From Eledone cirrhosa (Eukaryota): 64,000 nt of DNA. The position numbers and the translations under genes are program-made. Positions 3,525 through 60,551 of the stretch are shown piece after piece; position 1 is the stretch's first letter; each line of letters begins with the position of its first letter. Under the pieces are notes generated by a model that worked only from the letters and a program-made list of their open reading frames with translations, made no database searches and was not told the origin of the DNA. Location: positions 178,436,001 to 178,500,000 of the forward strand of contig OZ024740.1 in the NCBI GenBank assembly GCA_964016885.1, in the 5' to 3' direction.

Positions 3525-4507
3525 TATCAACTAGAAATAGATTGACATATATATATATATAAAATAAACATATGAAACAATCTCAGGAAATAATTTGTAA
3601 AGTGTGTAAGCACACATAGCGAGGTAGGTAACTAATTAAAGTTTAACTAGAACTTCAAATATAGATACCCTTTAAAATGATTAATCTCCTTTGTAAATAT
3701 TTCTTTAAGTAAGAAATATATTTCACCTATTAATCCGTAAATCACAGCAGTTAAATTCTTGGATGTTCACCAAAGGAGAAGAAGATAACCATCTACGTTT
3801 ACAAAGCAAATGTGTGCTTACATTATTTACATATTATTCCCTGTGATTGTTTCATATGTTTATTTTATATATATAAATATGTCAATCTATTTCTAGTTGA
3901 TATGTAATGCTCGGATCTAATCTTTGAGCTTATTCTACGGTGGATATGGCGCATGTCTCTCAGACATGATAACCCTTAATTTTAATTTTGGATATATATA
4001 CGGCCCATTGATTGTTGAGCTAATTCAATTTAATAGGCTCTGCTGCTATATCTGGCTGTCGATGGTCCTATTCACGCCACTGGGATGACGTTGTGCAATG
4101 TGTGTATTTTTTTTAAAAATGCAACACGTGGTTCGAGTCATTCACAGATTTGCATTTGCTTTGTAAACGTAGATGGTTATCTTCTTCTCCTTTGGTGAAC
4201 ATCCAAGAATTTAACTGCTGTGATTTACGGATTAATAGGTGAAATATATTTCTTACTTAAAGAAATATATACAAAGGAGATTAATCATTTTAAAAAGGTA
4301 TCTATATTTGAAGTTTTAGTTAAACTTTAATTAGTTACCTACCTAGCTATGTGTGCTTACATTCGTTATAAATTATTCCCTGTGATTGTTTCATATGTTT
4401 ATTTTATATATATATATATATATGTCAATCTATTTCTAGTTGATATGTAATGCTCGGATCTAATCTTTGAGCTTATTCTACGGTGGATATGGGCAAATAA
4501 TTATCTT
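3525..4507 (+). mobile_element. Retrozyme-like element B: terminally redundant 543-bp unit (3811-4490) plus inverted arm (3525-3812)
   Basis: Direct repeat 3811-3950/4350-4491; arm 3525-3812 is the reverse complement of ~4154-4445; TA flanks; no ORF. Confidence 0.75.
4186..4280 (+). ncRNA. Type I hammerhead ribozyme, G3-C8 core variant
   Basis: Stem I TCTCCTTTG/CAAAGGAGA, core GTGAACA, irregular stem II 4202-4240, GAA, stem III ATATATTTCT/AGAAATATAT, AUA cleavage triplet. Second copy at 3685-3779 (-). Confidence 0.8.
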
Positions 4508-4747
4508 ATATATATATATATATATATATATATTTATTAAAATAACAGATTAAAGTTTAAGCAAAGAATATATATATATATATATATGTGTGTGTGTGTG
4601 TGTGTGTGTGTGTGTTTACACGCACACACAATAGATAAAACAAGAACATTCACAAGCCAAATATATATATATCAAATACAAATAATAAAATAAAGAATGA
4701 AATTCCTCTTCTCGTCTAATACGTTATGTACCTTATTATTTTTACTG

Positions 4748-4935
4748 ATTGGCAGTATTGGTAGAAAGTCAGATGCCATGCTTGGCAGCATAGAATTACG
4801 GTCCTTTACGGTCTGAGTTCAAATCCCGCTGAAGTTAACTTTGCCATTCATCCTTACGGGGTCGACAAAAGTAAGTACCCATCACGCACTGGGGTCAATC
4901 TAATCGACTTACCCCTCCCCCAAAATTGCTGGCCT
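4748..4935 (+). mobile_element. tRNA-derived SINE
   Basis: Same head and core as the 1210 copy. Confidence 0.85.
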
Positions 4936-6754
4936 TTATTTTTACAGTTCTTGTTTTCACTTCGAAATGAAACATCAAACTTTCTTTTACCATAAATCTA
5001 TAAATTTCCTTACATACTAATGTCAGAAAGTAATTTGCTTTCTTAAAATTTCAGGCGTCTCTATTGAAAAAACCAAAACCAAATTGAAACTTGTTACAAT
5101 TAATTATCTTACTTACAATGTATTTATTTATTCATTCATTTAATTATTTATTTATTTATTTGAATGGCCAATGCAGTTCACTGCTTCCTATTCAATTTTA
5201 CTCAGTGGAAGAATTGATTACCTGCATTGAAATTAACTTCGATTTTCTTCATTTTATTTCATATATTTATCTGTCAATTTTACTACTATGCTGCGAAAAT
5301 TTCAATGACATTTATTTTATTTTTGCAATAATTTGGGGCTATCATACTTCTCGTTCTATTATATGGCTCTGATAATTGCTCCCCAAAATAAGAAATCTTT
5401 TTAAACAAGAACAATGTAATCTGTACAATATAAGTTTTACGAGTTCAATTAAAATCATATATGGCGTCCGCCTTATGCGATTTTATTATAGATTTAATAG
5501 TAACAATTTCAGCATATTTAGAAAGCATCGGCAGCATAGATATGTATTTTGTTCATAAAAAAATGGTAGCAGTACAGGCATCATTGTGTGGTTAAGAGAC
5601 CATAGGCATGTCCGTGAAAAAAATATTTCACTTTAGACATGTGTTTTTAGTTTTAATTTTATTGCGTGGGCAATTACGCGAATCTCATATTATAGCCTCG
5701 AGTCAAGCAATGACATTGAAAGACGGAAACTGTGTGGAAGCTTGCCGAAGGGGACGTATATATTCTTGCTGGTAGACTTAATCTGTTGTACAGTTCATCA
5801 GCACCATCTGACCAATGCATGCTTCTAGCAGAACCCACTATGGGCCAGGTAACCGGTCTGAGAATACATTCTTCCTGCTTAGCATCAATCACGAATGCTC
5901 CTTGTCTTCGTTACCTGAGTAAGCTATTAGAAATAGATTCACCCACCGACAGCAGGTTTATCACCCCATATGCTGTGTGTCTTTTGCCATGCTTCTAACT
6001 ATTAACACCCCGTTAAGATTAAGCCTGTCTATTGCAGCCATGTCTGTTTCGTCTACCATACTTACTCTCTCTTACATATTGAAAGCCTGATTTAAAAATT
6101 TAATTCAAAGCTTTCTTTCTAAATGTCAAAAAGCAAGTCGCTACTCCACTGTGCAGTGGCAGCCAAAACTAGACCCATAAAACTAAGATCACGCACATAT
6201 GTTAAATGTATTATATATATATATATATATATATATATATATATATATATATATATATATATAGTAAAAGATTGTACGGGAACAAAACAGAGAGGCAGTA
6301 CGAATATATATATATACAAATGAAAGTACAACATCATATTCGAAGTTCGAGACGCAGCTAAGCCGACGAATGCCTTCAGCAGTGCAGCCAAGCACTCGAC
6401 AAGGTATAGACCTCAGTGTAATAACATACAGTTTAAGGGGCTTTGCAAATTGAAGATAGCGACCGGTAATTCAGCTGTTGGGTCCGTAGCAACGAAAGAA
6501 GTGACTCGCGAGAAAAAATACATACACATATACACACACACACACACACACACACATATATATATATATATATATATATATATATATATATATATATATA
6601 TATATATATATATATATATATATATATATATATACACACATATATATATATATATATATATATATATATATATATATATTATATATGTATATATATATAT
6701 ACATACATATATTATATATATTTAACATATTATTCACATATCGAATATATATTC

Positions 6755-59130: not shown

Positions 59131-59421
59131 GATATTAACAAATGGAAATTATATTTATAAAACCATATTTATTTCATTATACATATTTCAAGGACACCAA
59201 GTTAAATTATGGTGTGCTTTCATCAGATAAAATATAATATAGAGCAGTTTTATAAATAAATATTGACATACCCTTAAAGAATGCAACCATTACTGTTGGA
59301 AGCTCCCGGATATTATATTATATTATATTTTATCTGATGAAAGCACACCATAATTTAACTTGAAATATGTATAATGAAATAAATATGGTTTTATAAATAT
59401 ATTTTCCATTTGTTAATATCG
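59131..59421. mobile_element. Family H head-to-head pair with HHRs at 59171-59233(-) and 59327-59380(+)
   Basis: ATTTTAT CTGATGA AAG-C-ACACCA..TGGTGT-C-CTT GAA ATATGTAT A ATGAAAT; the + copy lacks 9 nt of stem II. Confidence 0.78.
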
Positions 59422-59740
59422 TATATATATATATATATATATATATATACACACACACATGCATACAAATATTGGTTTGTGTGTTTGTTGTGTGCGTATT
59501 GTGTGTATGTGTTGTGTGTGTCTGTATATGTGCGTGATGTGAGAGTGTATACACGCACATATATATATATACAAGAATACATTATATCTATCAATCTATC
59601 TATCTATCTATCTATCTATCTATCTATCTATCTATCTATCTCTCTCTCTCTCTCTCTCTCTCTCTCTCTCTCTCTCTCTCTCTCTCTCTCTCTCTCTCTC
59701 TCTCTCCCTCTCTCTCTCCCTCTATATATATATATATATA

Positions 59741-60551
59741 TATATTATATTATATTTGGAGTTTAAACTCAAAAAGTCATTTACAATTAATTAGCTCAAA
59801 GAAAGAAGCATTTCTGAGCCGTGAAATATAAGGTAATATAAATTAATATATGAAAAACACATAAGTGTTTGTATTGCAAAAGACGAAGTTAGCTAGAATG
59901 AAATAAACTAATTAAAATAAATATAGTTTGTCTGTCTCGATATAAATCAATAAAAACAAACCTATATTGGCAAAATTGGCAGTGATTCCTGGACAAATTT
60001 AAATTTCAAAATCCAAACCTGCTCCATAGATGAATTTGAACTTCAAAACCTAAATATGTTTCGCAACGATGGTATAAAAAGTGAAATAATCAAATCTTCT
60101 GTGCTTATCAACAGGAATCCAGAAAAATTAGGACATTTCACCTCCAAAAAATTTTGTAGGACTGGTTCACAAGTACAAACGCACGAGGTACACAGCTCAC
60201 TAGCTATCTCATACTCACAGTGCTAGAAATAACAGCCGTTTATATGGGATTAAAAATTACCTCAACACGCAAGGAGCCGTAATATTATATTATATTTAGT
60301 GTTTTAAATTCAAAAGTTCATTTACGAATTAATTAGCTCAAAGAAAGAAGCATTTCTGAGCCGTGAAATACAAGTTAATATAAATTAATATATGAAAAAC
60401 ATATTGCCAATATAGGTTTGTTTTTATTGATTTATATCGAGATAGACAAACTATATTTATTTTAATTAGTTTATTTCATTCTAGCTAACTTCGTCTTTTA
60501 CAATACACACACTTATGTGTTTTTCATATATTAATTTATATTAACTTGTAT
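59741..60551 (-). mobile_element. Retrozyme-like element C: 542-bp terminally redundant unit (59741-60400) plus inverted arm (60404-60551)
   Basis: TTAGCTCAAAGAAAGAAG at 59791 and 60333; arm is the reverse complement of ~59828-59973. Confidence 0.75.
59984..60119 (-). ncRNA. Type I hammerhead, U3-A8 core variant with very long stem III
   Basis: GATTCCTG TTGATAA GCA..TGC GAA AC[long hairpin]GT C CAGGAATC; GUC triplet. Confidence 0.78.

Follow-up and report, generated by a model that had tools for sequence, protein, structure and literature searches.

Non-coding repeat families with predicted hammerhead ribozymes and Penelope-type integration features in Eledone cirrhosa

Animal retrozymes lacking long terminal repeats (LTRs) have been argued to be non-autonomous derivatives of Penelope-like elements (PLEs) (bioRxiv 10.64898/2026.07.22.740005; earlier PMC7229834). 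Tails, inversions and TA targets are described as standard PLE features (PMC8557442; PMC3846280). In an anole PLE, Poseidon PAc, reverse transcription starts at two internal sites bounding a tail, downstream RNA is needed and both target strands are nicked; the element is modelled as a dimer, and its hammerhead was not needed in vitro (PMC11167929). Here we describe four elements, B, D, A and C, from a 64,000-nt window of the Eledone cirrhosa genome (positions 178,436,001-178,500,000 of contig OZ024740.1, our G000:C1, a microsatellite- and repeat-rich part of a 3.0-Gb assembly), together with the families to which they belong. The B, A, C and D families are real, multi-copy and non-coding, and carry a PLE integration signature. 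That they are mobilised by a PLE is very probable; we regard it as likely that, specifically, they are hammerhead-bearing (predicted type I) non-autonomous PLEs which depend for copying in trans on the reverse transcriptase (RT)/GIY-YIG protein of another PLE, probably one of the Hydra clade.

The class itself, animal retrozymes as non-autonomous PLEs, is already in print. Our searches, made in the literature, found no description of a cephalopod retrozyme. The families resemble non-LTR retrozymes, a class to which they would belong if the putative cleavage and circles are real. Like the metazoan non-LTR retrozymes described so far (PMC7229834; bioRxiv 10.64898/2026.07.22.740005), they are low-GC, non-coding units with one type I hammerhead and a proposed PLE ancestry. 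The published units span 150-450 nt (PMC7229834) or 51-972 nt (bioRxiv 10.64898/2026.07.22.740005), against 485-549 nt here. In contrast to arrays, the Eledone copies are mostly of 1.1-1.5 units or head-to-head; their predicted hammerheads have long stems II and III and cores with G3-C8 or U3-A8 pairs or with U4A or A9U changes; they have no homology to a known pseudo-LTR (pLTR), and any circles are putative.

With Hydra-clade PLEs, as described in PMC8557442, the families share insertion into (TA)n, copies that are partly tandem or inverted, two fixed ends, and a hammerhead with a U-U base of stem II and, in A and D, a stem III of 4-5 bp. Hy2, a Hydra element of the same genome, has hairpin feet at both ends, as the families do. 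Unlike Hydra-clade PLEs, the units have no frame, a tail of 80-108 nt and no alignable repeat homology, and stem III is much longer in B, C, E and F. Poseidon PAc offers a parallel in its two internal RT start sites bounding a tail, its protein-binding RNA downstream, its AT-rich target and the partial activity of a C3G/G8C double change; in the anole element a coding, AC-rich stem-loop contains the sites, which have no homology to the target (PMC11167929), whereas the Eledone sites are TA-like and the hairpin is duplicated so that every site is provided with one. Chlamys non-autonomous elements such as MRC1 are likewise non-coding and PLE-type, with pLTRs and head-to-tail copies; their 3' ends are similar to those of their autonomous partners, and they belong to a clade mostly without hammerheads (PMC8557442). 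Hammerheads with a U3-A8 pair are known as natural covariants (PMC4209133; PMC3088659), from which the putative ribozyme of C differs by its long stems. New here are high-copy families whose predicted ribozymes combine long stems with a G3-C8 or U3-A8 pair, related families with apparently decayed cores, a long hairpin-bounded tail and a near-strict rule of one end at each start site.

Unit structure and start sites

An initial annotation had proposed four units, each with terminal redundancy and an inverted arm. Self-BLAST of the window recovered all of them, with periods of 539-543 nt (B), 485 nt (D), 536 nt (A) and 540-542 nt (C), each bordered by (TA)n. Genome searches were then made per element, 40 first-look candidates being scored out of 2690, 1111, 3085 and 2965, figures that are not copy numbers. 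Thirty loci were fetched for each window element; these 120 and 45 others gave a set of 165 loci, or 160 distinct loci after five overlapping ones were dropped. Six multi-copy non-coding families resulted: B, A, C and D, plus E and F, with units of 537, 549, 538, 485, 503 and 541 nt, respectively, and a GC content of 30-37%. The longest ATG frames of the family units are 41-89 amino acids and none exceeds 89, in keeping with the annotated lack of open reading frames. Families E and F came to light through a pattern that spans hairpin 2 and the CTG block (both described below) and gave 330 exact genome matches against none for a reversed control; they are 68-72% identical to C and to each other. 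Copies differ from their family majority by 2-4.5% (best matches only).

The copies have the anatomy of non-autonomous PLEs: partial tandems that close on themselves, variable 5' truncation, an inverted 5' copy in many cases, two alternative 3' ends and a microsatellite target. The end of the unit joins its own start in all families, with up to 2.3 units in one arm. TA-rich DNA follows 217 of 252 outer 3' ends, and is lacking at 26 of 78 outer 5' ends. Mapping of 271 3' ends in the 160 distinct loci placed 236 of them at one or other of two fixed sites, which are separated by 80-108 nt. A TAT or ATAT marks each site, with a hairpin a few bases to its 3' side; the hairpin foot is GCTC..GAGC in five of the six families; B has GCCC at site 2, and the hairpins of D are different. 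In simple head-to-head loci one end lies at each site in 61 of 62 cases (binomial p about 1e-17, over the same 160 loci); seven further inverted loci are compound. The simplest reading of a head-to-head copy is one priming per strand, one at each site. Unit anatomy, the two 3' ends, the (TA)n targets and the one-of-each ends match a PLE tail with two RT start sites (PMC11167929; PMC8557442), and argue for PLE-type copying.

Within the window, element B (3521-4492, + strand, 97% identical to the family majority) has an inverted arm at 3521-3812 finishing at site 1, followed by 1.27 units on the + strand. Its hairpin 1, GCTC..GAGC, lies at 3909-3929 and again at 4452-4472, directly 3' of start site 1 (about 3905), and hairpin 2, GCCC..GAGC, at 4003-4020, directly 3' of start site 2 (about 4000), all on the + strand. 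The other three elements are on the - strand. Element D (21817-22490) comprises 1.27 units with a site 1 end at 21817 and an inverted arm at 22433-22490 finishing at site 2; its hairpins 1 and 2 occupy 22296-22273 and 22187-22170. Element A (33044-33897) has 1.05 units finishing at site 1 (33044), an inverted arm at 33607-33897 finishing at site 2, hairpin 1 at 33577-33547 and hairpin 2 at 33482-33466. Element C (59742-60551) has 1.23 units finishing at site 2 (59742), an inverted arm at 60401-60551 finishing at site 1, hairpin 1 at 60361-60336 and again at 59819-59794, and hairpin 2 at 60277-60261.

These observations suggest how a copy might arise. A PLE protein, predicted to be dimeric for the single PLE examined in vitro, would bind the unit RNA at the two hairpins and nick both strands of a (TA)n run. 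Each DNA 3' end would then prime reverse transcription internally at the TAT or ATAT directly 5' of one hairpin. Single priming would leave a one-strand copy finishing at site 1 or site 2, and double priming a head-to-head copy with one of each. By crossing one unit repeatedly, whether on a circle or by template re-entry, the enzyme could generate the 1.1-2.3 units seen. The hammerhead would likely trim or circularise transcripts in B, A, C and D, and is probably not needed for the copying itself.

Several points weigh against this scheme. The tail of 80-108 nt is longer than the 30-40 nt described for PLEs, and the start sites share TAT or ATAT with the target, unlike those of the anole element. 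Homology of the units to the repeats of four coding PLE families, their pLTRs and 3' ends included, was not significant in 30 comparisons (best result 2 of 100 shuffles), Neptune and Naiad families not being examined. One B copy (L026) adjoins a frame of the non-Hydra f1 type without intervening TA, and a published octopus Naiad has a GCTC..TTGAGC hairpin before its frame (PMC8557442). Finally, the loci are best matches to full units, with ends and divergences biased towards long, young copies, and the D sample is biased to site 1.

Hammerhead cores and shared blocks

Hammerheads were sought with a type I descriptor (core NUGANNA, GAAA and UH, with any Watson-Crick 3-8 pair). The majority sequences of B, A, C and D each gave one match. 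Shuffled sequences gave any match in 2-6 of 1000 cases (0.2-0.6% per family), and none with a stem I of at least 8 bp. The pair between positions 3 and 8 covaries, as had been claimed: it is G-C in B, U-A in C and C-G in A, D, E and F. Strictly intact hammerheads are present in 33 of 38 copies of B, 32 of 35 of A, 39 of 44 of C and 24 of 33 of D. Stem II domains are 33-54 nt long, and stem III measures 4-5 bp in A and D and is much longer in B, C, E and F. Both A and B have a U-U base of stem II, which is found in many published Hydra hammerheads (PMC8557442).

In element B the hammerhead (4186-4280, +) has the core GUGAACA (G3-C8) at 4195-4201, GAAA at 4241-4244, a stem I of 9 bp, a stem III of 11 bp and a predicted cut after 4271; this window copy is predicted to fold directly into a three-way junction (z -3.4). 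A second copy in the inverted arm (3685-3779, -) has one stem III mismatch and fails the strict descriptor. That of element C (59984-60119, -) has the core UUGAUAA (U3-A8) at 60111-60105, a stem I of 8 bp, a 67-nt stem III domain and a predicted GUC cut after 59992. Element D (hammerhead at 21893-21977, -) has the core CUGACGC (C3-G8) at 21972-21966, A9C in this window copy, with a palindromic stem III, and is predicted to be cut after 21898; the 3' half of another ribozyme, containing a further predicted cut site, lies at about 22437-22378 (-). The hammerhead cores called in the initial annotation were confirmed for B, C and D. For A, the G-C core called in the initial annotation was mistaken. 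The family core is the canonical CUGAGGA in 28 of 35 copies, and the window copy has lost it: in the remnant at 33234-33305 (-) the GAAA, stem III and the 3' side of stem I are intact (33261-33234), and two small deletions near 33300-33290 break the 5' side of stem I and run through the core. The sequence GTGAACA at 33319 cannot pair to form stem I and was not matched by the descriptor even when position 9 was relaxed. GTGAACC in C, also considered as a core, likewise lacks a stem I partner.

Between C and F, both sides have changed in five of eight stem I pairs, two of three stem II pairs and the 3-8 pair, with 98% of cells paired across 20 sequences, counts that represent copies of few lineages rather than independent events; six E rows of this alignment are misaligned 3' of GAAA and contribute no letters to stems I and III. 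A further compensated stem I pair separates E from C. In B, A and C the core carries 0.8-1.1% substitutions against 3.1-4.5% unit-wide, an approximately four-fold difference that is less clear in D. In core, three stems, open stem I and covariation, the B, A, C and D majorities fit the type I hammerhead consensus as predicted structures. A strictly intact core is rare in E (1 of 33 copies, U4A in 30) and in F (4 of 31; most copies have A9U, 21 of 31 reading CUGAUGU); stem I is still fully paired in both, with a sequence different from that of C. Because E and F have spread with U4A or A9U cores, cleavage may be unnecessary for spread.

Comparison with Rfam, suggested at the outset, returned no hammerhead among the best 150 of 339 matches in the window, those shown being microsatellite microRNA artefacts, and no match at gathering score in six family loci. 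A G3-C8 pattern found 540 genome matches against 8 for a control, and 26 of 30 fetched loci were B-like. Among the G3-C8 matches listed (L294-L323), a second B subfamily with the core GUGACCA outnumbers that of the window. In one Hy1 copy (L303:1500-1540) the ribozyme is standard except for a G3-C8 core, which we treated as probable chance. Hammerhead core changes usually cost activity (PMC3088659); U3-A8 covariation occurs naturally, including in Schistosoma PLEs (PMC4209133; PMC3088659), and G3-C8 is reported as an engineered, partly active change (PMC11167929; PMC3884650). We think it probable that the variant cores of B and C cleave. For a natural G3-C8 pair, our literature searches turned up engineered variants only, work on small PLE variants lying outside their coverage. 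A paper on small PLE hammerhead variants is said to describe cleavage as dimers, and natural G3-C8 may be reported there.

Overall, the window elements are indeed unalignable, with a global identity of 50-55%. Of the blocks said to be common to them, CTGYYMTHTCTRG (the CTG block) is present in all four on the ribozyme strand, at 4043-4055 in B (+), and at 22147-22135 in D, 33444-33432 in A and 60235-60223 in C (all -); shuffled units yield it 1-4 times in 5000. The GCTC..TTGAGCT motif was found in B, A and C and gave no match in D, which has different hairpins at the corresponding places. Local similarity exceeded all 200 shuffles for B-A, B-C and B-D and was matched by 4 of 200 for A-C and 5 of 200 for A-D; for C-D (32 of 200) it is weak and not significant. 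A single superfamily is well supported for B, A and C, with E and F, and weakly for D, whose apparent tie to the others consists of one 44-nt block, position and architecture. A lone CTGYYMTHTCTRG match outside any element (47643-47655, -) looks like chance. The CTG block was also considered as a 3' splice site, having CTRAT upstream and a YAG end in A, C, D, E and F; this reading was not adopted, since the block finishes with TGG in 39 of 53 B-like copies and no donor is evident.

Template, partner and origin of the units

One question about the proposed scheme is whether its template is a circle. If the families were true circular-RNA retrozymes, dimer loci would be cut by two hammerheads and ligated into circles of about 0.5 kb, and the circles would be the obligatory template; to this reading we assign somewhat less than an even chance. 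Among the 311 arms of this set, 63 are longer than 1.3 units and five longer than two, with a maximum of 2.3, and repeats within a locus are homogenised, sharing 15-17 non-majority letters per kb against 4 per kb between loci. The long arms and the letters shared within a locus fit an enzyme that crosses a single RNA unit several times, either on a circle or by re-entry; local duplication or conversion could add to the sharing. A pile-up of 5' ends at the predicted cut site is absent (4 of 311 within 5 nt, 6.5 expected), hence templates would be uncut or re-ligated. Long copies ending at site 2 would need hairpin 2 beyond a whole unit, which a 1.2-unit linear transcript would not contain, and circles are shown for other animal retrozymes (PMC7229834). 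Against an obligatory circle, two same-strand hammerheads one unit apart occur at only 17 of 160 distinct loci, both strictly intact at 9 of 165 before overlap removal, and two whole ones in none of the four window copies. The E and F cores are non-canonical in families that are young and abundant; hammerhead mutants of the anole PLE were unimpaired for insertion in vitro (PMC11167929); and eight of nine Xenopus retrozyme dimers reportedly failed to cleave (bioRxiv 10.64898/2026.07.22.740005).

The protein that would act in trans was sought beyond the window. The initial annotation had cast neighbouring PLE proteins in this role, which the window does not bear out: all its PLE pieces are broken and have no repeat homology to the units. 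The PLE proteins of this genome are similar to published octopus ones. Genome searches yielded a large Hydra family, Hy1; Hy2, with many identical intact 710-aa frames across chromosomes (L228-L230 and L238-L267, e.g. G000:C1:156286600-156288744); and the abundant f1. Hy2 is probably active now, judging from these frames. Read by eye and without a tree, its protein (L228) has the Hydra features of a C-terminal GIY-YIG, RWK, DKT and a CxCX5C linker, with no CCHH; Pfam returned no RT or GIY-YIG match for it. Hy2 carries a hammerhead, and its long microsatellite-rich 3' region has a second, degenerate copy. About 72 nt separate its two ends, a GCTC..GAGC foot comes after both of them, and the base of its second hairpin, GCTCCAA..GTTGAGC, is that of hairpin 2 in A. 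A two-hairpin descriptor, set after Hy2 had been seen, was matched by 2 of 1000 shuffles; among the units it finds both hairpins in C, E and F, one in A and B, and none in D. Two other candidates were set aside: f1 has two ends with no hairpin foot and no homology to the units, and Hy1 was rejected as a direct parent, its likeness to A and C (in the TCC..GGT GAAA form of the ribozyme and in some short words) being non-significant. The two Hy1 ends are separated by 70 nt, and their foot is different. A Hydra-clade partner is our best guess, and a somewhat better than even one.

A Naiad or Neptune partner, in which case the long-stem variants would be what descriptors missed in Naiads, appears unlikely. 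In its favour are the octopus hairpin mentioned above, the (TA)n targets of Naiads and some of their 'half cores', 35-50 nt apart (PMC8557442), which match the 33-54-nt stem II domains found here. The published Naiad hairpin motif, however, has no match in the Eledone cirrhosa genome at one mismatch and was dropped as a partner signal; cephalopod Naiads are described as old remnants (PMC8557442), against families 2-4.5% from their majority; and it is the probably active Hydra element that has the two-hairpin design.

It is improbable that the units are detached pLTRs or untranslated ends of undiscovered coding PLE families, the alternative that the initial annotation had itself singled out. 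Three loci join a unit 5' end to PLE coding-family sequence without TA (L042:2030-2060, L085:2010-2030 and L026:1950-1970), and the 165 loci read come from several hundred or more copies. These three fusions differ in partner and orientation, and TA is in any case absent from 26 of the 78 outer 5' ends; the L042 and L085 junctions fall at short shared words, and we read all three as template switches or nested insertions with deletion. Units close on themselves in every family, up to 2.3 per arm, and only 13 of the 165 loci, leaving 152 without, match a PLE protein inside a distance of about 1.5 kb. At these 13, a TA run intervenes in eight, and family, side and spacing are inconsistent. The units are therefore not pLTRs of a coding frame.

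Chance resemblance among AT-rich, palindrome-prone repeats, to which the non-significant C-D similarity and the choice of motifs after the sequences had been seen might point, can be dismissed as most improbable, and is refuted for B, A, C, E and F, by the descriptor null, the compensatory changes in stems and the genome counts (330 against 0 and 540 against 8).

Other repeats of the window and implications

The remaining window repeats include the very abundant f1 PLE (1-1208, 9610-11714, 40549-45503 and 62107-64000), with a C-terminal GIY-YIG, an Asn/Thr-rich insert, frames of up to 1246 aa elsewhere and two ends about 55 nt apart. A broken Hydra-type PLE family, f2 (36272-40075, 11793-13711 and 60549-60930), has canonical hammerheads at 13595, 11898, 39895, 60812 and 60757 and a tail of roughly 100 nt with an ACTC..GAGT hairpin; one copy adjoins element C. 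Further hammerhead-bearing repeats are one with a long stem III and a (TA)n end (9047-9340 and 28857-29320; cores at 9152, 29169 and 29045), a likely retrozyme-like family of 428-nt tandem units (6638-7143, 19899-20424 and 31394-32259; small canonical core at 6892), and a 1.4-kb head-to-head palindromic element (29539-30965; minimal hammerhead at 30825). A short hammerhead-like element stands beside D and C (22580-22732 and 59127-59424; cores near 22617 and 59333) and also beside L085 and L293. Decayed non-LTR RT-like frames occupy 14604-17018, and about 15 copies of a 185-nt short interspersed element are spread over the window.

Families of the kind described here bear on how PLEs prime and on what their hammerheads do, and separate the cis signals from coding sequence. 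Their two hairpin-marked start sites, to each of which one end belongs in 61 of 62 simple inverted copies, can be compared with an intact and apparently recently copied Hydra element of matching design. The natural series of cores in related young families (C-G, U-A, G-C, U4A and A9U) bears on the need for cleavage or circularisation, and the families indicate that descriptor and Rfam searches undercount animal hammerheads. More speculatively, they may have radiated as non-coding parasites with circular RNAs that exploit an active Hydra-clade PLE. The duplicated GCTC..GAGC hairpin would then be the priming signal, assigning one RT start to each nicked strand; the natural long-stem G3-C8 and U3-A8 hammerheads, in hundreds of copies that Rfam misses, would be active, and sister families would have shed catalysis. 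If so, a minimal cis signal for twin priming by PLEs would be available for the first time, and the same genome would encode the cognate intact protein.

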